From Candidatus Saccharimonadota bacterium (GTDB lineage Bacteria; Patescibacteriota; Gracilibacteria; UBA1369; 2-02-FULL-48-14), in NCBI GenBank assembly GCA_016699145.1, contig CP064962.1:150001-182000 (forward strand): a DNA stretch of 32,000 nt, in the 5' to 3' direction. This document shows positions 2,958 to 30,705 of this stretch, piece after piece (the stretch's first letter is position 1; the number at the start of each line of letters is the position of its first letter). Made by a program: the position numbers and the translations under genes. The notes under the pieces are model-generated. The model was not told the DNA's origin, made no database searches, and saw only the letters and a list, made by a program, of their open reading frames with translations.

Positions 2958-3185
2958 ATGAAAAACAAGACCTTCTTCAAAAGCACTCCTTTTCTAGCCA
3001 CTCTCTTCCTCCTCCTTTTGCTTGCCAGCAACGGCCTCACAGCATGGGCTGTGTACTCCGTGAAAGAAAGCGAGTACAATGAACTCAAGTTGCGCATCGC
3101 CAGCACCATCGATCAAAAACTCAAAGTTCAAGATGAACTCGAAGAATTGAGACTGATCTGTCCCGTCGAAGAAACGGAAGAATAA
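2958..3185 (+). CDS. Small signal-anchored protein, hypothetical
   Basis: 75-aa ORF starting 2 nt after the gatB stop. N-terminal hydrophobic helix (FLATLFLLLLLASNGLTAWAV), then a charged coiled-coil-like tail. Confidence 0.4.
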   Translation: MKNKTFFKSTPFLATLFLLLLLASNGLTAWAVYSVKESEYNELKLRIASTIDQKLKVQDELEELRLICPVEETEE

Positions 3186-3202
3186 AATTTAACTCCACCG
3201 CC

Positions 3203-3460
3203 ATGCAATCTCTCGACATTCTGTACCTCACGCTTTCGGTCTGCATCACCTTGCTCACCGTTTTCGTTTCCATCACTCTCATTTACCTGCTTTTCATTTT
3301 ACGCGACGTGGTAAAAGTGACCGATCAAGTCAAAGACCTCGTTGAAAAAGTGAACACCTACATCACAAAACCCATTTTGCTCACCAAAAGCATCATCGAG
3401 TTTGTTTCCCCCTTCATTCAATCCGCCCAAGAAAAAGTAGGGAAGAAGAGGAGGGATTAA
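3203..3460 (+). CDS. Small TM protein, possibly DUF948/YtxH-like
   Basis: 85-aa ORF with one N-terminal TM helix followed by an amphipathic helix (VVKVTDQVKDLVEKVNTY). The family call is weak. Confidence 0.35.
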   Translation: MQSLDILYLTLSVCITLLTVFVSITLIYLLFILRDVVKVTDQVKDLVEKVNTYITKPILLTKSIIEFVSPFIQSAQEKVGKKRRD

Positions 3461-3467
3461 ATGCCCT

Positions 3468-4247
3468 CTAGCTTCTAGCTAACAGCGCTTTGAAGGAAAA
3501 CACCACCACCGCATTCCAGATGCGTTTTCCACGTTGAATCGGATTTAAAAAGAGCCTCCACAGCCACTCCAGGCCCAATTTTCTAAAGAGAAGAGGAGCT
3601 CGTTTAACCACCCCCGCATAAAAATCAAAGGAGCCGCCCACTCCCATCGCAATGCGAAGAGAAGGGAGTTTTTCAAAATATTCCGAAAGCCAAAGTTCCT
3701 GTTTAGGCGCACCATACGCCACAAAAAGAATCTGAGGTTTTGCTTTTAACACTTCTTCAAAAGCCTGTTTCCCAGGATTCTCAGAAGAAGCGCCGGCCAC
3801 TTTTAAAGAAGGCCATCGCTTTTGAAAATAAGCCGCTGTTTTCTCTGCCACTCCTGGTGCAGCTCCTAAAAAAAATATGGACCAATTTTTTTCAACCGCT
3901 TTTTCAATCACATCCACCATAAAGTCCGCACCATGAATGATTTCAGGGAAAACCCAGCGGAAGTAGCGCCTTCTAAAAAGATAGAGCACAAGCGCATTGG
4001 GGAAGGCAAGTACCCGAAGCCAACGGGGCAGAAACATTAAGGTACTCACCAATTGAAGGCCATTCCCATCGGGCAGCATCAAAGTACCTTTTTGCAGCGC
4101 CTTTCGGTACCCAGGGTTCCGAGAGGCTTCAAGTAAAATTTCTGGATTGGGTGTAAAAATCAGCTGTTTTTCATCCAAACGAGCTTGAGCCTGAACTCGA
4201 GTCAGAGCATCCACTTTCACTCCAAAAAAAGTCGTTCCATTTTTCAT
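3468..4247 (-). CDS. WecG/TagA/CpsF-family glycosyltransferase (N-acetylmannosaminyltransferase-like)
   Basis: 259-aa ORF with family blocks MLPDGNGL, ILFVAYGAPKQELW, GVGGSFDFYAGVVKRAP and GLEWLWRL..P.R. Its ATG overlaps the upstream methyltransferase stop (ATGA on the minus strand at 4244-4247). Confidence 0.85.
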   Translation of the reverse strand: MKNGTTFFGVKVDALTRVQAQARLDEKQLIFTPNPEILLEASRNPGYRKALQKGTLMLPDGNGLQLVSTLMFLPRWLRVLAFPNALVLYLFRRRYFRWVFPEIIHGADFMVDVIEKAVEKNWSIFFLGAAPGVAEKTAAYFQKRWPSLKVAGASSENPGKQAFEEVLKAKPQILFVAYGAPKQELWLSEYFEKLPSLRIAMGVGGSFDFYAGVVKRAPLLFRKLGLEWLWRLFLNPIQRGKRIWNAVVVFSFKALLARS

Positions 4248-4954
4248 GTGCGAGCAATGGTGATTAAATTTCGATCTTGTTTTTCATAGTGCACTGTATA
4301 GCCTGCCTTCTCTAATAAACCGCGAAGCTGTTTAGGGCGAAAGGCATAGTAATACCGTTTCACTCGATGTTTCCAGGGAATGAGCAGTCCTCGAAACCCA
4401 TAATTCGGCCACAGCACATTCCGCAGCCACGCCTTCCAAAAACGCAGCGACCACAGATTCCAATTCGTCATAAACAAAAACGCACCCGGTTTCAAATGCA
4501 TTTTCAGCCGCTTCAAAAACACAAGTTGATCCTTGGGCGGTAAGTGATGAAACGAAGCGATCATAAATGCAGCATCAAATTTCCCTCCCAGATTCGGCAA
4601 GTTCAAGATGTCCGCCTGAACAAAGCGGAGTTTCGCAGGGTCAATGACACCATCCGCAAAAGTGTCGACGCATCCGCGTGCCTGCTCAAGTAGCGCCTCC
4701 GATTGATCCACACCCACGTAAGAATGCAACTGCTTGTCTCGTAAAAAACCGAGCAAACGCCCATTGCCGCAGCCCAAGTCCAAAACTCGTAAGCCGGATC
4801 TTAAAAATGGCACAAAATCCTCAAACTCCTTCCAACTCGCTTGGCGCGTCTCCGAAAACTCCTCCGCGATCGAATTGTAGTCCCGCTTGACCTTTTCGCG
4901 GATTCTCTTAGAGTGCATGGTAGGCTGAGTGTTAACGAATCCCATGAAAATCAT
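4244..4954 (-). CDS. Class I SAM-dependent methyltransferase, Trm9/ALKBH8-MTase-like
   Basis: Motif I VLDLGCGNG. N-terminal YNSIAEEFSETRQASW resembles yeast Trm9 YNEIAPHFSQTRYKPW. Later blocks FDAAFMIASFHHL and RYYYAF..KQL..LLEKAGY also resemble Trm9. The likely true start is MHSK at 4918; the longest ORF start at 4954 would overlap elp3. Confidence 0.75.
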   Translation of the reverse strand: MIFMGFVNTQPTMHSKRIREKVKRDYNSIAEEFSETRQASWKEFEDFVPFLRSGLRVLDLGCGNGRLLGFLRDKQLHSYVGVDQSEALLEQARGCVDTFADGVIDPAKLRFVQADILNLPNLGGKFDAAFMIASFHHLPPKDQLVFLKRLKMHLKPGAFLFMTNWNLWSLRFWKAWLRNVLWPNYGFRGLLIPWKHRVKRYYYAFRPKQLRGLLEKAGYTVHYEKQDRNLITIART

Positions 4955-6575
4955 TCAAGAAGAGAATATCCTTAAAAACCTGCTCAAACAAGCGTCCAAA
5001 CTCCCTGAAAAAACGGAGGGGGAACTTCACAAACTCAAGAAGCGTTTCGCCCGGGACTACAAAATTTCTTTGCCCACAAACTTTCAACTGCAAACCGCTT
5101 ACGAGGAACTCTTAAAAGAAGGATGGAAAGGGGAGGCAGTTTTGCAACGTCTCATTCGTAAGCGAAAAATCCGGACCTTATCAGGCGTCAGCGTGCTCAC
5201 CGTTTTGACCAAACCTTATCCCTGCCCAGGCAAGTGTGTGTTTTGCCCCACGGAACCCGGCATGCCAAAGTCCTATCTTTCGAATGAACCCGGAGCCATG
5301 CGCGCTGTGCTTGACGATTTTCACCCTCAGGACCAGGTTCGAACTCGCCTCGACAGCCTCACACGCCAAGGTCACGAAACCGAAAAAATCGAGATGATCG
5401 TGCTCGGTGGCACTTTTTCAGCCTACAACCGCCGCTATCAAACGGACTTCGTGCGCGCTCTTTTCAATGCTTGCAATAAGGGCTTGCCAAAAGAAAAAGG
5501 CCCCACGGGACGTTCCCTTGAAGAGGCCCAACGCATCAACGAATCCGCCAAACACAAAATCATCGGCCTCAGCCTTGAAACCCGTCCCGACCACATCACC
5601 GAAGACGAAATTTTGAACATGCGCCGTCTCGGATGCACCAAGGTTCAAATCGGCGTCCAGCACATCGATCAAGCGGTACTCGACCTCAACAAGCGCGGCG
5701 AAAAAATTGAAGACACCATCAACGCGATGAAATTGCTCCGTGACGCGGGCTTCAAAATCGCTACTCACCTTATGCCCAACCTGCCCGGCAGCACTCCTGA
5801 ACTCGACCTCTGGGTGGTACAAGAATTCTTCCGAAATCCCGCTTTTAAACCAGACCAAGTCAAAATCTACCCCTGCGTGGTCACCCCTTATGCCGAACTG
5901 GAAGAGTGGTGGAGAGAGGGGCGCTACCAGGCCTACAGCGACGAAGTGCTCATGGATCTCCTTTACAAAATCCAACTCGAATTGCCCGAATACGTACGGG
6001 TCGAGCGCCTTTTCCGCGATATTCCAGGGGAGTCTATTCTGGAAGGCAGCCAAAAGACCAATATGCGCCAACTTCTCGAAGAGCGTATGAAAGCCGACGG
6101 AAAATTCTGCCGCTGCATCCGTTGTCGTGAAATCCGCGGCGAGTCTTACGATCCCAACGCCACGTCTTTGCGCATTCATGAGTTCGACGCCAGTGACGGC
6201 AAAGAATTTTTCATCAGTTTCAACCAAGCGGATCCAAAGGATTTGCTAAGCCAAAAAGACAAACTCTGTTCGCTACTACGCATGCGCTACTCCTCCTACT
6301 CACTTCAGGGCAAAACTCATTTCATCCCTGAACTCGACGGTGCCGCACTCATTCGTGAAGTGCACGTTTACGGAGCAGAAGTGAACGTGGGTAGCACTAA
6401 AAAAACCGCGTCTCAGCACGCCGGACTCGGCCGCCGCATGCTCGAAAAAGCTGAAGAATTGGCCAAAAAAGACGGATTTAAAAAAATGGCCATCATCGCT
6501 GGAGTGGGCACCCGCAACTACTATCGCAAATGGGGCTATGAGCTCGAAGGGACTTATATGACGAAAGCTCTTTAA
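4929..6575 (+). CDS. elp3: Elp3-type radical-SAM/GNAT tRNA uridine(34) carboxymethyl-synthase homologue
   Basis: 548-aa ORF. Radical-SAM cluster motif CPGKCVFCP (CX3CX2C) followed by MPKSYLSNEPG. C-terminal GNAT acetyl-CoA motif QHAGLGRRMLEKAEE. Overall length and domain order match Elp3. The start is GTG 4929 or, more likely, ATG 4944. Confidence 0.9.
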   Translation: MLTNPMKIIQEENILKNLLKQASKLPEKTEGELHKLKKRFARDYKISLPTNFQLQTAYEELLKEGWKGEAVLQRLIRKRKIRTLSGVSVLTVLTKPYPCPGKCVFCPTEPGMPKSYLSNEPGAMRAVLDDFHPQDQVRTRLDSLTRQGHETEKIEMIVLGGTFSAYNRRYQTDFVRALFNACNKGLPKEKGPTGRSLEEAQRINESAKHKIIGLSLETRPDHITEDEILNMRRLGCTKVQIGVQHIDQAVLDLNKRGEKIEDTINAMKLLRDAGFKIATHLMPNLPGSTPELDLWVVQEFFRNPAFKPDQVKIYPCVVTPYAELEEWWREGRYQAYSDEVLMDLLYKIQLELPEYVRVERLFRDIPGESILEGSQKTNMRQLLEERMKADGKFCRCIRCREIRGESYDPNATSLRIHEFDASDGKEFFISFNQADPKDLLSQKDKLCSLLRMRYSSYSLQGKTHFIPELDGAALIREVHVYGAEVNVGSTKKTASQHAGLGRRMLEKAEELAKKDGFKKMAIIAGVGTRNYYRKWGYELEGTYMTKAL

Positions 6576-6582
6576 AAGGCAC

Positions 6583-6611
6583 TTCCAAAACACACAACAA
6601 TCAGGTATAAT
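6583..6611 (+). promoter_or_regulatory. Candidate sigma70-type promoter for the 6633 gene
   Basis: TATAAT at 6606-6611 with TTCCAA at 6583-6588 (17-nt spacer). A small hairpin AAGAGA/TCTCTT follows, before the ATG at 6633. Confidence 0.3.
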
Positions 6612-6632
6612 AAAGAGATTTAATTCTCTTGA

Positions 6633-8258
6633 ATGAATGCACGCCAATCGCAAGGATCTTCCGCTCAATCTCAATCCGTCCCCGAAAAGTGGGGAGACAA
6701 GATTCTAGAGGTCTTGAATCTCTCCGATCAAAAAAAGGAACGTGCCGATTTAGCCATGACAGTTATGGAAGAAACTCCACCAGAACCTGTTTTAGATCGT
6801 GCAAGAAAATTGAAAGAGGAGGTGGACAAAGGAGAAAAACCTCGTGATTGGAGCTGGATGCCCACTGCCCTTAAGGTAGGAGTAGGGCTAGGAACGGCTT
6901 ATTTAAGCTGGAAAGTGTTCAGTAAACTTTGGACCAAAGAAGTCGATGAAAAAGAAGGAAAAAAAGACAAAGAAGCTTTCTTCAGTACAGCCGAAAAAGC
7001 AATCGGTTTAGCCACTCTCGGGGGAGTGGCTTGGCTCGTAGGGAAGGAGGCTATTCCAGGATATTTCAAGGATAAGATGGGGCTCGATGCCAAGAAAGAA
7101 ACGGTAGACCGCTTCATTGCAAGGCTCAAAGAAAAAGGAATGAAAGATGCCCTCGCCGAACTGACTCTCGATTCCGATGAAGCCTATTTGACTCGCATGG
7201 CCGAAACCATCAGTGTTGAAAGAAAATACATACTCAATTTACGAGATGTGAGTTACTCAACATTTTTAGAACATCGAAAAGGACAAATTTCTGGAAAATT
7301 TGGCTACGCCACGATGCAAATCGCTGAGATGGTGGGTTTTGACCTATCCAGTAATATTCCATTCACCAACGCTGACGATGACCTTCGTGAAGCCAATGCA
7401 GACGCCAAAATCCAAATCTACATTGAAGCGAATAGCACCGAAGAGGAGCGAAAAAAGAAAACCATTGGCGAACTATTACAAACGATTGATCAAAGAGAAC
7501 ATCCTGAAACTACACCCGAACTTACTAAGAAGCCTCTGATTTCAGAAGATCCAAAACTTTTAGAAGAAAAAGGTAAAAACACCAGCAATCTTATCAAATC
7601 ATGGGGAGAGGAGCCTCAAGAAGGACAGACTCCAAGCTCCGTCGAAAAGAAAGCAGGGGATCTTGTGGATGCAGCCGCAAAAGACGGGGGACAGCTTTTC
7701 TGCTATGAAGGGGTACTTTATCTCCTTTCAGGGGGCAGCATAATGGTGCTTTCCAGTTGTTCTTTCTTCGTAGACACCGTCTGCGACGTGGCTGAAGCAG
7801 CTGCAACGGAAGAAAAAACTGCGGGCAGTGTGGTGACTAGCTTTCTGGAACGCGGAGGACTGACTTACGTGGGAGGAGGAATGGCGGTAGGAGTCGCCAT
7901 AGCAGGTCTTCAAAAAGCAGGCATATTAAACGGAAGTGGGTCCGTAATTTTTGAAGCCTTAAAAGGAGCGGGAAGAGGAATCATTGCCCCTCTCAATATT
8001 TTCAAGGGGACCGCAATAGGTGCAAAAACGGTTTATGCCGGAGCTCAATGGGCGACGGATGAAGCTAAATTGCTCTTCTTCACAGCAAAAGAATTGGCAG
8101 ACCCAAGCAACAAACTGGTCTATCAACGAGCCAGAGCGGCCTGGGCTGCTGAAGAATTTTTAAAACTTTCGACGAAGCCAATTTCGAAAAAATCGCCGGT
8201 TGGGACATGGAAGGAATCAAATCTCGAGTCAAATCTACACTGCTTCCAGAAAACGTAA
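6633..8258 (+). CDS. Large uncharacterised membrane protein, part 1; may continue into 8207..9448
   Basis: 541-aa ORF. Two N-proximal TM helices (ALKVGVGLGTAYLSW, AIGLATLGGVAWLVG), a charged central region and a C-terminal Gly/Ala-rich hydrophobic cluster (GGGMAVGVAIAGL). No family recognised. Confidence 0.55.
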   Translation: MNARQSQGSSAQSQSVPEKWGDKILEVLNLSDQKKERADLAMTVMEETPPEPVLDRARKLKEEVDKGEKPRDWSWMPTALKVGVGLGTAYLSWKVFSKLWTKEVDEKEGKKDKEAFFSTAEKAIGLATLGGVAWLVGKEAIPGYFKDKMGLDAKKETVDRFIARLKEKGMKDALAELTLDSDEAYLTRMAETISVERKYILNLRDVSYSTFLEHRKGQISGKFGYATMQIAEMVGFDLSSNIPFTNADDDLREANADAKIQIYIEANSTEEERKKKTIGELLQTIDQREHPETTPELTKKPLISEDPKLLEEKGKNTSNLIKSWGEEPQEGQTPSSVEKKAGDLVDAAAKDGGQLFCYEGVLYLLSGGSIMVLSSCSFFVDTVCDVAEAAATEEKTAGSVVTSFLERGGLTYVGGGMAVGVAIAGLQKAGILNGSGSVIFEALKGAGRGIIAPLNIFKGTAIGAKTVYAGAQWATDEAKLLFFTAKELADPSNKLVYQRARAAWAAEEFLKLSTKPISKKSPVGTWKESNLESNLHCFQKT

Positions 8259-9448
8259 AGCAGCTACGAACTCGTTACATAGAATGGTTTTTAAGAAATC
8301 GAAAGGAATACCTCAAAGCAGCCAATCTCTCAGACGACTTCACCTGGCACTACGCTAAAAGTGGAGTGGATTTAACCGCTCCAGCGGAAGAGGCCAAACG
8401 TTTTCTTGCAGAAATAAAAGCAAGCCAAACAACCGCTTCCTTACGCGCTTTAAGCGAAGCAACGAACAGACCCGCTGGGGTAGAAACACCTCAAGCTAAA
8501 ATCAACCGATTGAGGAGCATGGCCACTAGTTCAGACTCCTACATGCGCAGCGCAATTGAAGAACGGGAAAATATGGTTCGACGCGGCATTCGAGGACCCG
8601 AGTTAGATGCGTTCGACACTCAAGTTCGAGAACACCTAAAAACCTCAGGCATAGAAGCAGAAACATTACTCGATGAACTCAGCAAAGAAACGCTTTCTCA
8701 TGAAGAAAAGGTCGCACTCAATGCAATCGTCCGTAAAGAATTGAGTACCAGCCTAGGAATTAAAGCAGTAGCCAAAGAAGTGAAAGGCCGCGGAATCATG
8801 TCCGTCGTCATCGGAACAGGCTATCTAGTTTATGAAACATATAAAGCGAATGAAGCGGGAAAAGACATGATCATCGACGGTGAACTCACCGCATTAGGAG
8901 AACAAATGGGTTGGACAACGCTCGAAACCATCATCAACGTGCTATGCCCATTTGGACTCACAGACTTTTATAGTGCAGCCATGGCAGAAGAAATTTTAAC
9001 AGATAGAAAATTAAGTGGCTGGGAACGTGCACTTCGTCTTGGAATGGGAACCTACAGTGCCTTTACAGATACAGTCGGCGTACTCGCTGCTATTGCCAGC
9101 AGTCCCGCCGCAGGAACGGCCGGAGCAGGAGTCTACGCCAGCGCCAATGCCGTAGAAGCAGCCGTGCGTCTCAGTCTTCGTGGCCTTGGAGCCAGCGATG
9201 ATCTCATCGAAACAGGCACACGACTCGTCCCTCGTTTAACAGAACTCGCACGTAAAGTAGGAGGTTATCGACAGTTGCTCGAACGCATGCAAAAAGTTGC
9301 TAGGGGAACCGGATACGCAATGGCAGGAGCAACAGCAGCATTCATGGGCTATACGGTAATGTACGACACTCGTGATGCAAAAGAAATTGAATTTGCGTCT
9401 ATTGAAATGCCAGAAATCCCAACAGAGGAGCCAAAGGCCGCTGCCTAG
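8207..9448 (+). CDS. Uncharacterised membrane-associated protein, part 2
   Basis: 413-aa ORF in the -1 frame relative to 6633..8258. That frame is open from 8153. Gly/Ala-rich hydrophobic segments (VLAAIASSPAAGTAGAGVYASANAV, GTGYAMAGATAAFMGY). No family recognised. Confidence 0.55.
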   Translation: MEGIKSRVKSTLLPENVKQLRTRYIEWFLRNRKEYLKAANLSDDFTWHYAKSGVDLTAPAEEAKRFLAEIKASQTTASLRALSEATNRPAGVETPQAKINRLRSMATSSDSYMRSAIEERENMVRRGIRGPELDAFDTQVREHLKTSGIEAETLLDELSKETLSHEEKVALNAIVRKELSTSLGIKAVAKEVKGRGIMSVVIGTGYLVYETYKANEAGKDMIIDGELTALGEQMGWTTLETIINVLCPFGLTDFYSAAMAEEILTDRKLSGWERALRLGMGTYSAFTDTVGVLAAIASSPAAGTAGAGVYASANAVEAAVRLSLRGLGASDDLIETGTRLVPRLTELARKVGGYRQLLERMQKVARGTGYAMAGATAAFMGYTVMYDTRDAKEIEFASIEMPEIPTEEPKAAA

Positions 9449-11858: not shown

Positions 11859-12699
11859 CTAAGCTTGGAGGAAATTTCTACGACGATCAGAAGATTCTTT
11901 GTTTTTCAAAAAGTTCACCTTCTTTGAAACTTTTTTGCCAGTTTTCAGCTCCAAAGCCTTTCGCGTGTCCCCAGCAATTTTTCCGCCCGCCTGCGCATCT
12001 TCCTTAAGAGGATCAAAGCCATGAGTATCTTTAACTTCAGTGATTTCTGTCGTTGCCCGCTCTCCGAGCATGGAAAAAATCAACTCTAAATCAGTCATCA
12101 GGATCTCGCAAATTTTCCCGTTTCAAACTTTTATATTTCTTATACTCATGGGGCGTCATCCCAAAAGTAGCTTTAGAAATTTCAGCCGACAAAATCGCGT
12201 AATCTTTCGCTTCTTTAGCGCCACGTTTGCTCCATTCGTCGGTCAGCTCTTCTCGAATCGCAATCCCACGCATTCGTTTTTCGATCCAACTCTCACTGTA
12301 GCCCTTGGCTTTATAAAGCTCATGCGTTCGTTTTGTCGCCAACTCAGGATCTTCGATCTCTTTAACCCGTTCATACCCCACTTTAGCGAGCCACAGCTTA
12401 AAAGGTTCCGCTTTAGGAGAAGGAATAGATTGAATAATACGAAAAATACCTTCGGTGTTAGCACAGTCGGTCATATATTTCTTACCATCAACAGATTCTA
12501 ATTTCAGTTGTCGACAAAATGTCGACAACTCAGCTCCATCCTCAGTCTCAACTCGAACTTTCATTCTATACCAATAATCTCTAGGGTTTTCACTTTCCGT
12601 AAGAGCAGCAATCACATCCACAACCGAAAACCACCATTCTTCTTCATAGAAAATCTTTCGAATCGTGCGGCCTTCAAAAATGGAAAGCATATTGGGCAT
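11859..12699 (-). pseudogene. Bro-N domain protein (phage/mobile-associated family), split by a 1-nt frameshift
   Basis: ORFs 12091..12699 and 11859..12098 together cover the whole family as I know it: WWFSVVDVIAALTE, IIQSIPSPKAEPFKLWLAKVG, KRENLRD|(H)MTDLELIF, GGKIAGDTRKALELKTGKKV. The junction on the minus strand reads CGA GAT CCT G ATG ACT, which has one extra nt between RD and MTD (about 12099-12103). Confidence 0.8.
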
Positions 12700-12829
12700 G
12701 GAATTTGGGGTAATCTTTGGACCTCGAATTTTCTCACAAAGAAAATCGCCATGCTAGAGATTTTGTTTCAGGTTTTTGTCAGGATTTTTATGAAAAACAA
12801 TACGCAACAAATTGTCACGGCCAGCTATA

Positions 12830-13115
12830 ATGAATTCCTTACTTTTCGAAGAATATAAAAAAACAGGAGAATCTTTGGCTAGGAAAGGTCTTATTAACAG
12901 TCAAGATTTTAATAAGTTAATAGAAATGATAAGCAAGAAAGGATATTTCCAATTCCTACAAAGATGATCATCTTTTTGACGGGATAAGTGCAGATTATTT
13001 GGTTTCAGAGGATCAAAAAGGCGTAGCTTGTGCAAAAATCATATCTGCACAAAAGAACTACAAGAAAATATTAACCGCGGCAGATTTTCTAAACATCCCT
13101 GTACCAAAAGCATAG
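12830..13115 (+). pseudogene. Possible decayed small gene: a 45-codon ORF plus a +1-frame continuation
   Basis: ATG 12830..TGA 12967 encodes MNSLLFEEYKKTGESLARKGLINSQDFNKLIEMISKKGYFQFLQR. The +1 frame, open from 12933 to TAG 13113-13115, reads protein-like (DDHLFDGISADYLVSEDQKGVACAKIISAQKNYKKILTAADFLNIPVPKA) but has no start codon. The segment is very AT-rich. No family recognised. Confidence 0.2.
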
Positions 13116-13128
13116 GGGTCGGGGTTTT

Positions 13129-13413
13129 CTAAACTCTCCAAGGAAGTCCAGGTTTGCCATTAGGATTTAGAACGGCATCTACCCTAGCTCGATTAGCTGC
13201 AAGCCATGTATCATAAATTGCTTGACGTGCTGGGCTGCAATGATCCAAAAACCCAGGCCGATCTAAACCTTGTTTGAATAGTAAAGCTAAATCCTCAACG
13301 CCAGACGGAACTTCAGATGCTCCTGTTTCTGCTGCTTGCAAGCCTCTGTCTAAAACCTCCAAAATTTCTGAGTCTTTCACGGAATCGCGTTCAAATACGT
13401 CTATAAGTGCCAT
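13129..13413 (-). CDS. Hypothetical protein
   Basis: 94-aa ORF with no recognisable motifs. It sits between tyrS and the AT-rich remnant. Confidence 0.4.
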   Translation of the reverse strand: MALIDVFERDSVKDSEILEVLDRGLQAAETGASEVPSGVEDLALLFKQGLDRPGFLDHCSPARQAIYDTWLAANRARVDAVLNPNGKPGLPWRV

Positions 13414-13487
13414 AAATGAGAGTTATGAAAGACCAACCGTAGCATATAAGTTTGCTTTCGCACAAATCAGCACATTGAAAATAAGGG

Positions 13488-14765: not shown

Positions 14766-15665
14766 ATGCAATTTGAAACCCAAGTCAACGCCGAACACAG
14801 CGGAAAACGCGTGGATCAATTTTTATCAGACGCCACAGGCCAGACACGTAGCGCCGTGCAGAAGCAAATTCTGGCTGGACGTGTGAAGATCAACGGCGTG
14901 AGTCCCCACAAAACCGGAGTAAAACTGGCCACCGGCGATACCGTACAAATGCCCCTCGCCGGACTCCCTCGTCCCAAACTTAAAAAGAGCAATCTCAAAC
15001 TCGAAATTCTGTTCGAAGACGAGAAAATGCTCGTGATCAATAAACCTGCGGGCATCGTCGTGCATCCCGACTCCACTGGCCACCACGAAAACACCATCGC
15101 CAATGCAATCCAAGCTCATCTCACCGGTAAGTTCGAAGGTTTTCGCCCTGGCATCGTTCACCGCCTGGACAAAGACACCTCCGGAGCCCTCATCATCGCC
15201 AAAACGCCCGAAAGCCTCCACCATCTCTCCCGTCTCTTCCAAAACCGCAAAGTTCACAAAAGCTACCTTGCCTTGGTGAAGGATTGCCCCAAAACCACTA
15301 GCGGAAAAATCAGTGCCCCGATTCAACGAGACTCCCATAAACGAAAGCAGATGGCCATGCATCGCCAAGGTAAAAATGCAGTGACCACTTTTGAAGTCCT
15401 CGAAAACTACGGCTGGTGCAGCCTCCTCAAGGTGAACATCGAGACGGGACGCACCCATCAAATTCGCCTCCACCTCGCTGGCATTGGTCACCCCGTACTT
15501 GGAGACACAACCTATGGAAACAAACCTGTAAACGCACGGGCCTTAAAAGAACTAGAGCTCAAGCGGCAATTCTTGCACGCAAAAAATTTGGAAATCGATG
15601 GCAAAACCTTTGACGCACCGCTGTCTCAAGATTTAAACTTGGCCCTTTCTCATTTTGGCGTATGA
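14766..15665 (+). CDS. rluD: RluA/RluD-family 23S rRNA pseudouridine synthase
   Basis: 299-aa ORF with an N-terminal S4 domain (RVDQFLSD...), the catalytic motif HRLDKDTSGALIIAKT, and GRTHQIRLHLA. Confidence 0.88.
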   Translation: MQFETQVNAEHSGKRVDQFLSDATGQTRSAVQKQILAGRVKINGVSPHKTGVKLATGDTVQMPLAGLPRPKLKKSNLKLEILFEDEKMLVINKPAGIVVHPDSTGHHENTIANAIQAHLTGKFEGFRPGIVHRLDKDTSGALIIAKTPESLHHLSRLFQNRKVHKSYLALVKDCPKTTSGKISAPIQRDSHKRKQMAMHRQGKNAVTTFEVLENYGWCSLLKVNIETGRTHQIRLHLAGIGHPVLGDTTYGNKPVNARALKELELKRQFLHAKNLEIDGKTFDAPLSQDLNLALSHFGV

Positions 15666-16462
15666 TCGACAAATCCAAACTCATTTCACTGCTACAGAAA
15701 TTGAACTTCTCTCGCAATGAAGCACTCGTTTATTTGACTTTGCTGGAACTCAACGAGGCAATTCCAAGCACCCTTGCCCAAAAAACCGGCCAAAAACGAC
15801 CCAACTGCTACATGATTTTAGAAAAATTACGCAGCCGAGGAGTGGTCACCAGCGTCAAAAAGAAAAACCTGATCCATTTCCAAGCCATAAAACCCGAATA
15901 TTTCCTTGAAAGAGAACGTAGCAAAACCCAAGAAATAGAAAAATCCCTCACTGATTTGGCAAGCGCCTTACCCGAACTGCTCAGCCTGCATCAAAGATAC
16001 ACGGCCACTCCGCAAATGTCCGTCTACTACGGAAAAGAGGGCCTCATTCAAGTGATGGAAGAAACCTTAAACACAAAAGAAGATTTGTTGTGTTGGGCCA
16101 ATGCAGATCAAGCCTTTTCAAGCCTAGAAGATTACTACCCTCGCTACATCAAGAAAAAAGTCACTCGAAAAATTTGGGTGAGAGGCATTTTTGCGATGAT
16201 GCTACCGGAAAAAATTCCAACAAAGAGGAAAAAAGAATTGCGTGAAATCTATTTAACCCCAAAAGACGAATTCCCTTTTAAAAACGAAATCAACATTTAT
16301 GACGACAAAGTCGCCATCATTTCTCATGAAGACCAAATCGGGGTCATCATTCAAAATCAACACATTGCAGACAGTCAAAAAGCGATCTTTAATTTTGTAT
16401 TTAAACAGGTGAAAAAACAGTATAAACCAAATATCAAGAAGACTTCAGTGAAGTCTTCTTGA
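15662..16462 (+). CDS. TrmB-family winged-HTH transcriptional regulator-like protein (paralogue 1)
   Basis: 266-aa ORF. The N-terminal FSRNEALVYLTLLELNEAIPSTLAQKTGQKRPNCYMILEKLRSRGVV is a typical TrmB-type wHTH. Its ATG overlaps the rluD stop (ATGA at 15662-15665). Confidence 0.65.
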   Translation: MIDKSKLISLLQKLNFSRNEALVYLTLLELNEAIPSTLAQKTGQKRPNCYMILEKLRSRGVVTSVKKKNLIHFQAIKPEYFLERERSKTQEIEKSLTDLASALPELLSLHQRYTATPQMSVYYGKEGLIQVMEETLNTKEDLLCWANADQAFSSLEDYYPRYIKKKVTRKIWVRGIFAMMLPEKIPTKRKKELREIYLTPKDEFPFKNEINIYDDKVAIISHEDQIGVIIQNQHIADSQKAIFNFVFKQVKKQYKPNIKKTSVKSS

Positions 16463-16463
16463 T
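16433..16463. terminator. Perfect 31-nt palindrome, probably a bidirectional hairpin terminator, embedded in both convergent gene ends
   Basis: ATCAAGAAGACTTCA-G-TGAAGTCTTCTTGAT. Both stop codons (TGA 16460-62 on +, TCA 16434-36 read on -) lie in the arms. T-rich runs follow on both strands. Confidence 0.5.
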
Positions 16464-17249
16464 GCTCTTTTTATCGTCGGTGGAGAGCAAGTCTTTTTCT
16501 ATCAACCGAGCATACTCAAAAGCGAAATTAAATATTGAACGTTGGGTATTAGCAATAGCTTCATTTTGGAGAATAACTCCAACATTATCCTTATGAGAGA
16601 TAATGCTCATTTTATTATCATAAATATTAATCTCATTTTCAAATAAAAAGCGATCCTTAGGGATGAAATAAACCTCTCTTAGTTCTTCAGAAGCTCTTAA
16701 TTTGAAACCAAGTCCTACAGAATCATAAAGAAATAAACACCTCGTCCATATTTTCTTTTGAATTTTTTTAGCCAAATAGTGAGGATGATATTCTTTCAAA
16801 AGAGTATTAACTGCTAAATCTGTATTAGACCAACATAATATTTCTCCAGAAGTAGTCAACGTATCCTCCATTACCTGAATAATACCTTCTTTCCCTTCAA
16901 ATATAGACATTTGTGGCGTTATATCATATAAATGCTTGAGTCTAAGCATTTCAGGTAAAATCACTTCAAGATTCTTCAATTTTCTAGCTTGGTCTTCCAC
17001 TAAAGCAGTAGGGTCAACAGGACTATAAAAAAGGCTCTTGCCTTTTATAACATGACTAACCAATCCCTTTTTTTTAAGTTGCTCAAGGATAACATAAACA
17101 GTAGGACGTTTAAGTAAAGATTTTCTAGCAACAGAGCTAGGTAAAGATTCTCCTAACTCAAGAAGGGTTACGTACACTAAAGCTTCTTTTTCAGTCAAAC
17201 CCACCATGTTTAAAACTTCAATAAGGTCAAAATCAGTATTCATTCTCAT
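16434..17249 (-). CDS. TrmB-family winged-HTH regulator-like protein (paralogue 2, low GC)
   Basis: 271-aa ORF with N-terminal LTEKEALVYVTLLELGESLPSSVARKSLLKRPTVYVILEQLKKKGLV. Collinear with paralogue 1 along its full length, about 40% identity by eye. It starts 13 nt after the stop of the 396-aa ORF, so the two are probably co-transcribed. Confidence 0.65.
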   Translation of the reverse strand: MRMNTDFDLIEVLNMVGLTEKEALVYVTLLELGESLPSSVARKSLLKRPTVYVILEQLKKKGLVSHVIKGKSLFYSPVDPTALVEDQARKLKNLEVILPEMLRLKHLYDITPQMSIFEGKEGIIQVMEDTLTTSGEILCWSNTDLAVNTLLKEYHPHYLAKKIQKKIWTRCLFLYDSVGLGFKLRASEELREVYFIPKDRFLFENEINIYDNKMSIISHKDNVGVILQNEAIANTQRSIFNFAFEYARLIEKDLLSTDDKKSIKKTSLKSS

Positions 17250-18614: not shown

Positions 18615-18690
18615 TGGTGCCCCGGGGTGGAATCGAACCACCGACCAACAGCTTAGAAGGCTGCTGCTCTATCCACTGAGCTACCGGAGC
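18615..18690 (-). tRNA. tRNA-Arg (anticodon UCU), CCA encoded
   Basis: The reverse complement GCTCCGGTAGCTCAGTGGATAGAGCAGCAGCCTTCTAAGCTGTTGGTCGGTGGTTCGATTCCACCCCGGGGCACCA folds by hand into a cloverleaf: 7-bp acceptor stem (one G-U), D arm GCTC/GAGC, anticodon stem GCAGC/GCTGT with loop CTTCTAA, and T arm GGTGG-TTCGATT-CCACC. Confidence 0.9.
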
Positions 18691-21850: not shown

Positions 21851-23281
21851 ATGAACAACCCCGATCAATTCAATAAATTCACTCGAGAAGCCAAACAAGC
21901 CCTGTTGGTGGCTCAAGAAGTCGCTAAAAAAACAGGGACTAGCTATGTGGGAACCGAGCACCTGCTCATTGGAATTTTATCTCAAAAAGCTTCCCTCGGA
22001 GCCACCGTTCTACAAAATTTTGGAGTCACTTTAGAAAATGTGAATTTGGTGCTCAAAACCGTAGGACGCACTCAAGTTTCATCACGCTCAAGCAAAAACC
22101 CTGGCGGACTTTCCGGCTTTGCAAAAAAAGTCATTGAAGACGCCATTCGCAGCGCACACGAATTTTCTCACAGTTTTGTGGGCACCGAGCATTTGCTCTA
22201 CGCCCTGGTGATTCAAGAAAACACAGCCGCAACCGTGATCTTAGAAAACATGAAAATTTCCCCTGAAGATTTGCGCCAGGAGTTGATTCAAACTTTTGAA
22301 CGCATGAAAAATGCTCCTCTGCCCAACAATGGAGGGCCGATGCACACGGCTCAAAATGTCAATCCTTTAGAATTCTTCTTGAATGGCCTTCAAGGAGTGC
22401 TTGCAGGACAAGACTCCAAAGAAACCGGATTCGACACGAAAAAGAAGGAGAGTAAATCTTCCACTCCCGCGCTGGATTACTTCACCACCGATATGATGGC
22501 GGAAGCGGCTCAAGAAAAAAAGATGGATCCCGTGATTGGAAGAGATAAAGAGATCGAACGTTGCATCGCCATTTTGCTGCGAAAAACCAAGAACAATCCC
22601 GTGCTCATCGGGGAACCGGGCGTGGGTAAAACCGCCGTGGTGGAAGGGCTCGCTCAACGCATCGTACGCGAACAAGTGCCCGACGCCATGCTCGACAAAC
22701 GCATCCTCAGTCTTTCTATGGCCTCTGTCGTGGCCGGCACCAAATATCGCGGAGAGTTTGAAGAACGCATCAAACAAATCCTAGAAGAAGCAGCCAGCCA
22801 ACCGAATGTGATTCTCTTTATTGATGAATTGCACACCGTGATCGGGGCTGGAAGTGCCGAAGGAAGCCTAGATGCAGCCAATATTTTAAAGCCTTCCCTT
22901 TCTCGAGGACGCGTGCAAGTCATCGGAGCCACCACCACCAACGAATACCGCAAACACGTGGAACCCGATGCCGCATTGGAACGACGTTTCCAATCGGTAA
23001 TGGTGGATGAACCTTCCGAAGAAGACAGCGTCGCCATCTTAAAAGGACTGAAAGAGTCCTTTGAAAACCACCACAATTTGGTGATCATGGATGAAGCCTT
23101 AGACGCTGCGGTAAAATTTTCCAAACGCTACATCAACGACCGCTTTTTACCCGATAAAGCCATCGACGTGATGGATGAAGCCGCAGCCTTAAAAGGCATG
23201 GTGGCCAAACAAGACAACGATAAGGTGAAAGATTTTCAACGCGAACTCAAACGCATCATCAAAGAAAAGAACATGCCGTAA
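21851..23281 (+). CDS. clpC: ClpC-type AAA+ chaperone, fragment 1 (Clp_N repeats + D1 ATPase)
   Basis: Two Clp_N repeats ([20 protein letters not shown]). D1 Walker [19 protein letters not shown] and Walker B ILFIDELH. The frame is lost at about 23263-23270. The UVR-like motif EQDYERAADLRQQE continues in another frame (23224..23418). Confidence 0.9.
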
Positions 23282-23378
23282 CAGAACAAGATTACGAACG
23301 AGCCGCCGATCTTCGTCAACAAGAACTGATTCTGAATGAAAAATTGAGGAAGAAAAACACGTCAAAATTCCTCGTGAA

Positions 23379-24047
23379 ATGCGAGGCAGCATCGACAGCG
23401 AAGACATCGCTCGGGTGATCTCTCGCATGACCGGCGTGCCTGTGACCAAGCTCGTGAAAGAAGACACCGATCGTCTGAAAGATTTAGAAAACATCATGAA
23501 AAATCGCGTGATCGGACAAGAAGAAGCCATCGAAAAAGTGGCTCGTGCCATCCGTCGTTCCCGCACCGGTATTTCCAGTGGAAAACGCCCCATCGCCTCC
23601 TTCATTTTTCTCGGTCCCACCGGAGTCGGTAAAACCGAACTCGTAAAAACCATCGCCAAAGAGGTTTATAACGACGAAGAAGCGCTGATCAAAATCGACA
23701 TGAGCGAGTTCATGGAACGCCATAACACTTCTCGCCTCACCGGTACCACAGCAGGTTACGTGGGCTATGAAGACGGCGGTCAACTCACCGAAAAAGTGCG
23801 CCGCAAACCCTACAGCGTGATCCTCTTCGATGAGATTGAAAAGGCACACACCGACGTGTTCAATATTTTTGCTTCAAATTTTAGAAGACGGTCATCTCAC
23901 CGATGGAAAAGGCCGCAAAGTGGACTTCACCAACACCATCATTGTGATGACTTCCAACATTGGAGCTCGCAAACTCACAGAAGGAGCCGCTCCTATCGGA
24001 TTCAAGATCAATTCCGAGGCCATGGACGTGGCCATGCAAGATTTTGA
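23379..24047 (+). CDS. clpC: ClpC fragment 2 (D2 ATPase, N-terminal part)
   Basis: The frame is open from 23340. It reads [22 protein letters not shown]2 Walker [14 protein letters not shown] and Walker [11 protein letters not shown]. Homology is lost after VFNI at the T5 run 23866-23870. Confidence 0.9.
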
Positions 24048-24495
24048 CCACAAACGTGACGAAGTCATGAAAGATCTCAAAGATCACTTCAAACCCGAAT
24101 TTTTGAATCGCATCGACAACATCATCGTGTTCCGACCCCTCACCCACGAACTCATCAAAGGCATCGTTGAAATCCACTTGCAGGACTTGCAAAAGCACTT
24201 GCGTGACAAACATCTCGCCCTTGAAATGACGCCCGAAGCACTCGACACTCTGGCGACCCTCAGCACCGATCCCGATTACGGAGCACGCCCTGTGCGCCGT
24301 AAGGTTCAAGAGCTCATTGAAGACCCGCTGGCTCAAGGCATTTTGGATGGAGAATTCACCGAAGGATCCTCATTCAAATCGTCAAAGAAGGGGACAGCAT
24401 CAAGCTTCAAAAAGGCACCGCTCAAGGAAAATCCAACGCAGGGATTAAAAAGCGCAGCTCAAAATCCTCTTTACAGGTTAAGAAAAACTAAGTAA
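23830..24495 (+). CDS. clpC: ClpC fragment 3 (D2 C-terminal part)
   Basis: Homology resumes at [33 protein letters not shown], followed by [18 protein letters not shown]. The last ~40 codons look out of frame; the alternative frame from 24372 reads [15 protein letters not shown]. Confidence 0.88.
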
Positions 24496-28635: not shown

Positions 28636-29880
28636 GTGGGCTTTATGGCCATCCCTCTTACACAACTCGCTTCCAAACTGGGTTTTACAGAAGCCGAAAT
28701 GGAAAAAAAAATCCTTGAACTTGGTTTTGACGTGAGCGAAAAATTGGAAGACGACTTAGCCGAACTCATCATTGAAGAAGTGCTGGGAAAGGTGAAAAAA
28801 AGTGCCGCCGAATTTTATGATGAAAAAATCGCTGAAGAACAAGAAAAAGAAATCGTAAAAAGCCAACGCAAACAAAAAGCAGGGAAAATCGTAAAAAAAG
28901 CCCCCGCTCGGAATTTTGAACGAATGGAAGTGCGCAAAGGAACGGTTGAAATCCCAGAAAGCATCACCGTAAAAGAACTGGCAGAGAAAACCAGTGTGAG
29001 CGCTGCCGTACTGATTGGAGCCTTGATGAAAAATGGAATTTTGGCCAACATCAATCAAGTCATCGACTACGACACCGCCGTGATCATCACGGCCGACCTC
29101 GGTGTGCAGCTTAAAAAAGCGCACGAAAGCGCAACTGCAGAAGATATTTTTAAGGGAAATTTAGAAAAACTCCTCGAAGAAGATGATGAAGCCATTTTAG
29201 AAAAACGCCCCCCTGTTGTTTGTGTGATGGGTCACGTGGATCACGGAAAAACCACTCTTTTGGACGCTATTCGAGACGCTCATGTGGTGGAGTCGGAAGC
29301 AGGAGGCATCACTCAACACATCGGAGCTTACCAAGTGGAGCATAAGGGGAGAAAAATCACCTTTTTGGACACCCCCGGACACGAAGCTTTCACCGCCATG
29401 CGTGCTCGTGGAGCTCGAGTGACCGATGTAGCCATTTTGGTCGTGGCTGCCGATGACGGAATCATGCCTCAAACCATCGAGGCCATCAATCATGCCAAAG
29501 AAGCCGGTGTACCTGTAGTTGTGGCCATCAATAAAATGGATAAGCCCGATGCCAATCCCAACAAAATCAAAGCTGAATTGGTTGAACACGGCCTACAATC
29601 CGAAGACTGGGGAGGTCAAACCATCATGGTGCCGATTTCTGCCAAAAAACAGGAAGGAATCAATGAATTATTGGAAAGTGTGCTCCTGGTTGCAGATATG
29701 CTCGATTTAAAAGCCAACCCAAAGCGCCCTGCCGTCGCCAGTGTGGTGGAATCTCACCTCGACCCCAGTTTAGGTCCGGTGGCCACCCTACTTGTGAACA
29801 CGGGAACGTTGAATGTAGGAGACAATTTCATTGTGGGGCAAACCTTTGGACGCGTGGAAATTGATGAAAGACGCGCATAA
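28636..29880 (+). CDS. infB: Translation initiation factor IF-2, N-terminal part (short N-domain + G domain + start of domain II)
   Basis: G-domain motifs [20 protein letters not shown] and NKMD. The likely start is ATG 28645. The ORF ends at an in-frame TAA (29878-80) inside the conserved region. Confidence 0.92.
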
Positions 29881-29940
29881 AAGAACCTTAAAACGCTGGG
29901 CCCCTCCGATACCGCTCAAATTGCCGGACTCAATGATCCT

Positions 29941-30705
29941 GTGGAAAGCGGCCAAATTTTACAGGTAATGGACACTGAAAAAATTGCTCGCCAAAAAGCC
30001 ATGCAAGTGCACAACATGGCTCGGGAAGAAATGATCAGCGCCGGAATGGGCATGCAAGAAATTTTACAACGCATCAAAGAAGGAACCCTCAAACTCTTAA
30101 AAGTAGTTCTGAAAGCAGACACTCAAGGCTCCTTAGAAGCCATCAAACAAGCGCTCGCAAAAGTGAAAAATGACGACGTTGCGATCCGCGTGATTCACAG
30201 CGGGGTGGGCTCCATTTCTGAATCGGATGTGATGATGGCTGCAGCCAGTCGCGGAACTTTGGTGCTGGGCTTCCACACCGAAGCCAATTTACAGGTTGAA
30301 CGCCTGGCCGAGCGCATGGGCATTGAAGTGGTGACTTATAAAGTCATTTATGAACTGATCGACGACCTCAAGAAGATCTTGACAGGCATGTTACAACCCG
30401 AACTCATCCACATTGAACTGGGCCAATTCAAAGTCATGAAGATCTTTTACACCGGAAAAAATGAAATGGTGGTGGGAGGAGCCATTACAGAAGGCAAAAT
30501 GGAAAAGAAAGCCAAGTTACGAGTTTTGAGAGAAGGTGAAAAAATCGGTGAAGGACAGCTCACCGGACTCAAATTGGTGAATGAAGACGTGGAGATGCTT
30601 GAAAAAGGCACCGAATGTGGAGCGCGTTATCAAGGAAAAGTGAGCCTACAAGAAGGCGACATTTTAGAAGCTTGGAAAGAAGAAAAGAAAATGAAGACCC
30701 TTTAA
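29941..30705 (+). CDS. infB: IF-2, C-terminal part (same frame as the N-terminal part)
   Basis: Homology resumes straight after the TAA (KNLKTLGPSDTAQIAGLNDPVESGQ) and continues through LKADTQGSLEAI, the C2 domain and GTECGARY. The listed GTG at 29941 is only the first start-like codon. Confidence 0.92.
   Translation: MESGQILQVMDTEKIARQKAMQVHNMAREEMISAGMGMQEILQRIKEGTLKLLKVVLKADTQGSLEAIKQALAKVKNDDVAIRVIHSGVGSISESDVMMAAASRGTLVLGFHTEANLQVERLAERMGIEVVTYKVIYELIDDLKKILTGMLQPELIHIELGQFKVMKIFYTGKNEMVVGGAITEGKMEKKAKLRVLREGEKIGEGQLTGLKLVNEDVEMLEKGTECGARYQGKVSLQEGDILEAWKEEKKMKTL

Follow-up and report, generated by a model that had tools for sequence, protein, structure and literature searches.

In the stretch of DNA analyzed here (the window, 32,000 nucleotides of a Candidatus Saccharimonadota bacterium, contig CP064962.1, positions 150,001 to 182,000), a gene for the radical S-adenosylmethionine (SAM) enzyme Elp3 is transcribed divergently from a gene for a SAM-dependent methyltransferase, and the two are likely to form a functional two-gene Elp3/Trm9-type module for uridine 34 (U34) of tRNA in a bacterium of the Candidate Phyla Radiation (CPR). 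In the proposed route, 5-carboxymethyluridine (cm5U34) would be produced first and then converted into 5-methoxycarbonylmethyluridine (mcm5U34). This reading is built on homology, active-site conservation and the conserved pairing of both genes, from which the product, the tRNA targets, an independence of the Trm112 subunit and a co-regulation of both genes are predicted. An original prediction, made from the letters of the window, had placed an Elp3 gene, the methyltransferase and a TagA/WecG-family gene in this region, and all three placements are borne out by the map of open reading frames (ORFs) and by the sequence. The features of the pair are as follows:

4244..4954, minus strand: ORF of the methyltransferase in the ORF map
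4244..4918, minus strand: Trm9-like class I SAM methyltransferase of 224 residues starting at ATG 4918, predicted cm5U34 carboxyl O-methyltransferase
4919..4943, no strand: divergent spacer of 25 nt between both start codons, read from the sequence
4929..6575, plus strand: longest ORF of Elp3 in the ORF map, with a GTG start at 4929
4944..6575, plus strand: Elp3 of 543 residues with radical-SAM and GNAT/KAT domains, likely start ATG 4944, predicted tRNA uridine-34 carboxymethyl synthase

The start codons had been put at 4918 and 4944, about 25 nt apart, and the alignments of homologs agree with both positions. Methyltransferase homologs begin at MHSKRI, which corresponds to ATG 4918 and yields the same 224 residues as the NCBI call, and for this reason that start was adopted and the alternative ATG at 4954 was rejected. 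An identical 224-residue protein is recorded at NCBI under the name 'class I SAM-dependent methyltransferase'. In the case of Elp3, tblastn alignments start at residue 6 of the GTG-started ORF, that is, at ATG 4944. Both genes are intact, despite possible assembly errors elsewhere in the window.

An indication that both proteins belong together comes from the conservation of their arrangement. A scan of GTDB species representatives retrieved at least 527 relatives of the methyltransferase, from which the best 80 loci were used; 75 of these have enough upstream sequence to be testable for Elp3, which was sought by tblastn. Elp3 lies immediately upstream and in divergent orientation in 66 of the 75 (88%), across many CPR lineages, so that the adjacency seen in the window extends to most of its testable species-level relatives. 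The distance between the ends of the high-scoring segment pairs of Elp3 and the methyltransferase has a median of 71 nt and stays below 250 nt in 60 of the 66 paired loci, in which identity goes down to 33-40% for the methyltransferase and to about 40% for Elp3. The labels of these loci include Peregrinibacteria/Peribacteria, Gracilibacteria, Komeilibacteria, Falkowbacteria, Magasanikbacteria, Beckwithbacteria, Parcubacteria and Saccharibacteria. Every other neighbor in the window is conserved in at most 31 of the 80 loci, and an all-against-all clustering of the ORFs within 6 kb in the 80 loci revealed no third conserved family, neither a Trm112-like gene nor a thiolase. Independent gene calls on a related assembly (L083) reproduce the layout: Elp3 and the methyltransferase are separated by 14 nt there, and the latter overlaps TagA by 4 nt. 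Since most related species keep the two genes paired, the CPR group probably uses a U34 pathway that textbooks assign to eukaryotes. As a separate observation, the pair also occurs in bins labeled Humimicrobiaceae (Actinomycetota; one locus) and 'uncultured Gammaproteobacteria' (loci L063; L014, L029, L033-L035, L039, L041, L050, L051, L064, L066, L067, L069, respectively); either these bins are mislabeled or the pair has also reached lineages outside the CPR.

The Elp3 of the window is an intact and full-length member of its family, judged by its sequence. It scores 523.6 bits on the NCBIfam model TIGR01211, for which the cut-off is 350, and its residues 28-548 cover positions 12-522 of the 522 of the model. 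Pfam recognizes the Radical_SAM and Radical_SAM_C domains, together with weak GNAT matches (E 0.003-0.008) located at the expected place. Among solved structures the best scores are obtained with the archaeal M. infernus enzyme (MinElp3, 6ia8; 385 bits), followed by D. mccartyi DmcElp3 (5l7j; 359 bits) and by eukaryotic chains (about 315 bits). The original prediction had recognized a complete Elp3 by its CPGKCVFCP and QHAGLGRRM motifs, and it is confirmed by the full-length family match and by the alignment to 6ia8. All three cysteines of the radical-SAM triad are kept (CPGKCVFCP, compared to CPHGKCIFCP in M. infernus), with the spacing between the first and the second one residue shorter. 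The three-cysteine zinc motif CRCIRCRE in the inter-domain linker is of the archaeal/bacterial type and identical to that of MinElp3, and the acetyl-CoA-binding motif QHxGxG appears as QHAGLGRRM (QHMGYGRML in 6ia8). At its N-terminus the protein also carries some 70 additional residues, many of them basic, that include KKRFARDYK and RKRKIR; the alignment to 6ia8 begins at residue 53 of the query and residue 32 of the chain. A basic N-terminal extension of this kind is important for the binding of tRNA by Elp3 and is short in the Dehalococcoides enzyme (Lin et al., PMC6367351).

These features, and the homology of the protein to the Elp3 enzymes of M. infernus and D. mccartyi, suggest the chemistry of the first step. 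The formation of cm5U34 by radical-SAM chemistry on acetyl-CoA is established for both of these enzymes. By homology, a stand-alone Elp3 would act in the CPR host in the absence of Elp1, Elp2 and Elp4-6, using its [4Fe-4S]/SAM radical domain and the acetyl-CoA bound to its KAT domain to place a carboxymethyl group on C5 of U34.

Concerning the second enzyme, a Trm9-type identity is supported by comparisons of profiles. A single-sequence search of the PDB was unspecific, with Yarrowia Trm9 (5cm2_Z) among the few alignments that pass from the Rossmann core into the C-terminal region. When a profile of the CPR family, made from an alignment of 57 homologs, was used instead, the same Trm9 chain ranked first over its full length (79.8 bits, E 2.2e-21, profile positions 23-213 on chain positions 3-193). 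The chains that follow reach at most 67.5 bits, about 12 lower; some of their alignments stop short of the C-terminal substrate-binding elements, and the others extend that far but do not match the Trm9 residues there. In the opposite direction, a profile of fungal Trm9 sequences gathered with the Yarrowia chain as query gave scores between 47.9 and 104 bits on the CPR proteins, and all 120 of them are above the 41.7 bits of the best non-Trm9 PDB chain. Direct comparison of both profiles with HHalign yielded a probability of 99.9 and an E of 5.8e-34 over 199 columns. The likeness to Trm9 that had been proposed from motifs is thus found again in both search directions. The assignment is already latent in databases, because one homolog has been named 'tRNA (uracil-5-)-methyltransferase TRM9' by automatic annotation at JGI.

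At the residue level, mutational data from yeast allow a finer comparison. Yeast Trm9 is inactivated by the substitutions R29A, D72A, H116A, W145A, W168A, R241A, Y243A and N271A, and H24A, K31A and D270A produce no phenotype (Létoquart et al., PMC4678810). When 120 CPR proteins and 111 fungal ones are aligned together, these eight essential sites fall on R25, D71, H125, W153, W182, R188, Y190 and N217 of the window protein; the eight residues are identical in it, and each of them is kept in 114-120 of the 120 CPR relatives (at least 95%). The yeast residues Y18 and H115 are likewise retained (Y14 and H124 in the window protein), and the dispensable H24, K31 and D270 are conserved neither in the window protein nor in the CPR family. 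The SAM-binding aspartate (D72 in yeast, D71 here) is invariant in 120 of 120 sequences and motif I is present as DLGCGNG. The position of Y243 is more variable among the GTDB loci, about 18 of 79 having a residue other than tyrosine. Conservation extends to the residues modeled to contact the cm5U carboxylate and the uracil ring. The motif resemblances that the original prediction had named hold against the actual Yarrowia sequence: YNSIAEEFSETRQASW of the window protein aligns with YNQIASHFSNTRYKPW of Yarrowia, FDAAFMIASFHH with FDFAISIAVIHH, and RYYYAF with RYYHLY. Because the cm5U-binding and catalytic residues of Trm9 are conserved, the methyltransferase is expected to use SAM for the esterification of the cm5U34 carboxylate, a reaction that would yield mcm5U34.

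The likely departure from Trm9 lies in the partner subunit. In Yarrowia Trm9, a hydrophobic patch formed by V59, F78, V102, A110, P112 and F116 is shielded by Trm112 (PMC4678810). The CPR family has K, R, S, D or T at the position of V59 and S, D, K, N or E at that of F78 (R44 and S66 in the window protein); F116 is retained. Because these central patch residues are polar here, the CPR enzyme probably works without Trm112, which would fit a stand-alone and soluble protein. A search for Trm112 (PF03966) gave no match among the ORFs of the 32-kb window, small intergenic ones included, and no conserved small ORF adjoins the pair in the 80 loci. This departure from the eukaryotic Trm9-Trm112 holoenzyme leaves the catalytic assignment unaffected.

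Several observations weigh against the proposed module and have to be set beside this evidence. The Pfam matches of the methyltransferase are generic class I families only (Methyltransf_23, Methyltransf_25 and Methyltransf_11), and its NCBIfam matches are all far below the (equivalog) cut-offs. The AlphaFold2 model of the protein is of high quality (predicted local distance difference test score, pLDDT, 92.5) and has a Rossmann-type strand order, and a Foldseek search with it against the PDB placed Trm9 fifth in a list of dozens of near-equal class I methyltransferases (E about 1e-11 to 1e-13). In a neighbor-joining tree of 25 CPR sequences, 12 fungal sequences and four outgroup fragments copied from the PDB alignments, CPR and fungal proteins grouped apart from the outgroup fragments, but the bootstrap of that split is weak (54.5%). 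Mean distances in this tree are 1.73 between CPR and fungal sequences, 1.95 between CPR sequences and outgroups and 2.47 between fungal sequences and outgroups; monophyly of the 25 CPR sequences was not recovered in it, and no weight is placed on this tree here. In nine loci the methyltransferase has no Elp3 within 10 kb; at six of these (L013, L042, L049, L068, L076 and L078) the methyltransferase still stands next to TagA. The aspartate that is salt-bridged to Trm112 (D117) is still conserved in the CPR methyltransferases. Finally, the case is made from homology, residues and synteny, and its product is a predicted one. With regard to the nine loci, their methyltransferases still carry the active-site residues of Trm9, and on this ground Elp3 may sit elsewhere in those genomes.

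The generic family matches, the non-discriminating fold search and the weakly supported tree would fit a methyltransferase that is an ordinary class I SAM enzyme, whose substrate is not tRNA but a small molecule or a protein and which stands beside Elp3 through inherited gene order. Such an explanation is quite improbable, given that the pairing persists at 33-40% methyltransferase identity, where all other neighbors have changed. Moreover, the pattern of conservation tracks the mutagenesis of Trm9, with essential residues kept and dispensable ones not, and the reciprocal profile scores exceed those of any solved methyltransferase other than Trm9.

The gene downstream of the methyltransferase offers a different partner:

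3468..4247, minus strand: TagA/WecG-family glycosyltransferase (PF03808, E 2e-45)

Both genes are co-directional, and the methyltransferase stop overlaps the TagA start as ATGA at 4244-4247, an overlap already described in the original prediction and visible both in the sequence and in the independent gene calls of L083. The TagA gene is probably co-transcribed with the methyltransferase. It could be argued from this coupling that the methyltransferase works together with TagA/WecG in the synthesis of a cell-envelope glycopolymer, for example by methylating a sugar or a linkage unit, the more so as TagA is found downstream in 31 of the 80 loci, including six of the nine that lack Elp3. A role of this kind is very improbable. 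All 31 loci are of the Peregrinibacteria/Gracilibacteria type, and in this same subset GatB, signal peptidase and RecG are also found near the pair (19-24 loci), whereas the pairing with Elp3 spans the whole set and, in other CPR lineages, goes without TagA beside it. The Trm9 active-site residues kept in the Elp3-less loci also speak against it, and no sugar O-methyltransferase family of NCBIfam scores well. The coupling to TagA was therefore judged to reflect operon packing at the clade level and not membership in the tRNA module.

A further alternative accepts that the pair acts on tRNA and places the end product elsewhere than in plain mcm5U34. The host could contain mainly cm5U, if the methyltransferase serves only some of the tRNAs. 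Alternatively, the ester could be an intermediate on the way to 5-carbamoylmethyluridine (ncm5U), 5-(methoxycarbonylhydroxymethyl)uridine (mchm5U) or a 2-thiolated form, as happens in eukaryotes. In favor of such an end product, yeast trm9 mutants accumulate ncm5U, which points to extra steps in the pathway (PMC3110198), and the U34 derivatives of archaea have been described as 'similar but not identical' to 2-thiolated mcm5U (mcm5s2U; PMC2584109). Such an outcome is regarded as unlikely, considering that no third gene is conserved with the pair and that the modeled contact residues for the carboxylate and the uracil ring of cm5U are maintained. Formation of mcm5U34 by the two proteins is kept as the preferred, predicted end point.

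Comparison with known systems helps to place the pair. In reviews, modification of U34 is ascribed in bacteria to MnmEG, which makes 5-(carboxy)methylaminomethyl-(2-thio)uridine ((c)mnm5(s2)U34), and in eukaryotes to Elongator and Trm9, which make mcm5(s2)U34 (PMC5400242, PMC7663514). The CPR pair resembles the eukaryotic system of Elongator and Trm9-Trm112 (ALKBH8-TRMT112 in mammals) in that both catalytic proteins are homologous, with Elp3 scoring about 315 bits to yeast, mouse and human chains and the Trm9 profiles matching at an E of 5.8e-34, in the retention of all mutationally essential Trm9 residues and in the same predicted two-step chemistry. It differs from it in being expected to function without Elp1, Elp2 and Elp4-6, in the archaeal/bacterial CRCIRC zinc motif of its Elp3, in the polar character of the positions of Yarrowia V59 and F78 with no Trm112-like gene in the window or beside the pair, and in the physical, divergent pairing of its genes. 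What is new here would be bacterial orthologs of a known pathway, probably with a Trm112-free variation.

Archaea provide another parallel. An Elp3-Trm9 gene cluster is known in Sulfolobus solfataricus and Trm9-Trm112 has been characterized in Haloferax (PMC2584109, PMC6144793). As in the archaea S. solfataricus and Haloferax volcanii, Elp3 stands alone without other Elongator subunits, and as in S. solfataricus it is clustered with Trm9 (PMC2584109, PMC6144793), and the closest solved Elp3, that of M. infernus (385 bits), has the N-terminal extension in common with the window protein. Unlike these archaeal systems, the host is a CPR bacterium, and Trm112, a validated partner of Trm9 in Haloferax, is not indicated here. 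The bacterial D. mccartyi DmcElp3 is likewise a stand-alone enzyme with the same fold and motifs (359 bits); in contrast to the window protein, with its roughly 70 extra N-terminal residues, it has no extended basic N-terminus and is weakly active (PMC6367351, PMC7663514). A Trm9 partner in Dehalococcoides is not reported in these two papers (PMC6367351, PMC7663514). With MnmE-MnmG, which produce cmnm5U/nm5U34, and with CmoM, which converts uridine 5-oxyacetic acid (cmo5U) into its methyl ester (mcmo5U), the pair shares the tRNA position and the purpose, and CmoM also forms a carboxyl methyl ester on the side chain of U34. These enzymes are unrelated to the CPR pair; CmoM came only 16th in the fold search and is absent among the NCBIfam matches listed for the methyltransferase (the best 25 of 33).

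In the searchable full-text literature, no paper was found that links Elp3 or Trm9 with CPR, Patescibacteria or Saccharibacteria, in agreement with the earlier statement that such a pathway was not known to be described for bacteria, the Elp3-Trm9 cluster being known from archaeal Sulfolobus. 'Numerous bacteria' reportedly have Elp3, according to a 2026 paper. Elsewhere, bacterial Elp3 is described as rare or confined to Dehalococcoides, with no evidence for xcm5U34 (the cm5U34 class of derivatives) there (PMC6367351, PMC7663514).

A wider, more tentative proposal can be drawn from this comparison. CPR/Patescibacteria might decode split codon boxes by means of an archaeal/eukaryotic-type xcm5U34 system, composed of a stand-alone Elp3 and a Trm112-independent Trm9 encoded by one divergent gene pair, that replaces the cmnm5/mnm5 modification of MnmE-MnmG and was possibly acquired through an ancient archaeal transfer; this is conceivable but rather doubtful at present. 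No MnmE or MnmG is encoded in the 32-kb window. A tblastn search with the E. coli proteins against the window and the 80 loci (1.23 Mb) found no MnmG and one match to the GTPase domain, but it had no power, since with both genes in every genome each would be included by chance only about 1.2 times. If the proposal were true, the rule by which bacteria have (c)mnm5s2U and eukaryotes mcm5s2U would fail for a whole superphylum. A conserved Elp3-Trm9 pair across hundreds of CPR species, with at least 527 relatives among GTDB representatives, would reveal the full two-step pathway in bacteria, in a group that makes up a large share of bacterial diversity, and would add to the archaeal/eukaryote-like features of translation in the CPR. 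For biochemistry, the pair would offer a system of two proteins that is minimal by nature, possibly with a soluble Trm9 that needs no Trm112.

As for the tRNA substrates, the only tRNA detected in the window by ARAGORN is tRNA-Arg(UCU), at 18615-18690 and 12 kb from the pair. The original prediction was right in naming it as the only tRNA of the window, and its link to the pair, which it had allowed might be coincidental, is a coincidence: among 48 related loci, just 2 have this tRNA within 10 kb of the pair, no tRNA is a consistent neighbor, and it was rejected as a functional neighbor.

The arrangement of the two genes also bears on their expression. The 25-nt spacer would be too short to hold two promoters, and so the control regions must be expected to overlap the coding 5' ends and reach into the opposite coding sequences. 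A shared spacer as short as this suggests a coordinated expression of Elp3 and the methyltransferase, and with it of both steps. One candidate site is a weak lead:

4887..4914, plus strand: sigma-70-like match TTGACC-16-TAGAGT within the first methyltransferase codons, facing Elp3

It agrees with the consensus at 9 of 12 positions, and a promoter and terminator scan of positions 3000-7000 showed nothing enriched relative to shuffled sequences (for sigma-70-like sites, 2 found and 2.8 expected).

Some other observations were made in the remainder of the window. The infB gene for initiation factor 2 (IF-2; 28636-30705) is split into two ORFs of the same frame by an in-frame TAA at 29878-29880 (…ERRA-stop-KNLKTLGPS…), which in an essential gene points to an error of sequencing or assembly, or possibly to readthrough. 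The ClpB gene (21851-24495) is spread over three ORFs in three frames (21851-23281, 23379-24047 and 23830-24495) that together cover Clp_N, the two nucleotide-binding domains NBD1 and NBD2 and the D2-small domain; the break corresponds either to two frameshifts, as in a pseudogene, or to indel errors of the assembly. Because ClpB is broken across three frames and infB has an in-frame TAA, the assembly may carry errors.

Directly downstream of Elp3, at 6633-9448, there are two large overlapping ORFs of 541 and 413 residues in different frames and without any Pfam match. The same position in the related assembly L083 (802-4353) is occupied by a single ORF of 1183 residues, also without Pfam matches; compared with it as a possible unbroken counterpart, of which they would be a frameshifted version, the window ORFs show 23% identity over 162 residues only, and the region looks like a fast-evolving large protein. 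Further on, a protein (12091-12699) with the Bro-N domain typical of phage or antirepressor proteins adjoins a 788-nt stretch without a convincing gene (12700-13487), and the whole region 12091-13487 may be the remnant of a mobile element. Finally, two winged-helix regulators of the TrmB family are encoded convergently, at 15662-16462 on the plus strand and at 16434-17249 on the minus strand, with their 3' ends overlapping by 29 nt.

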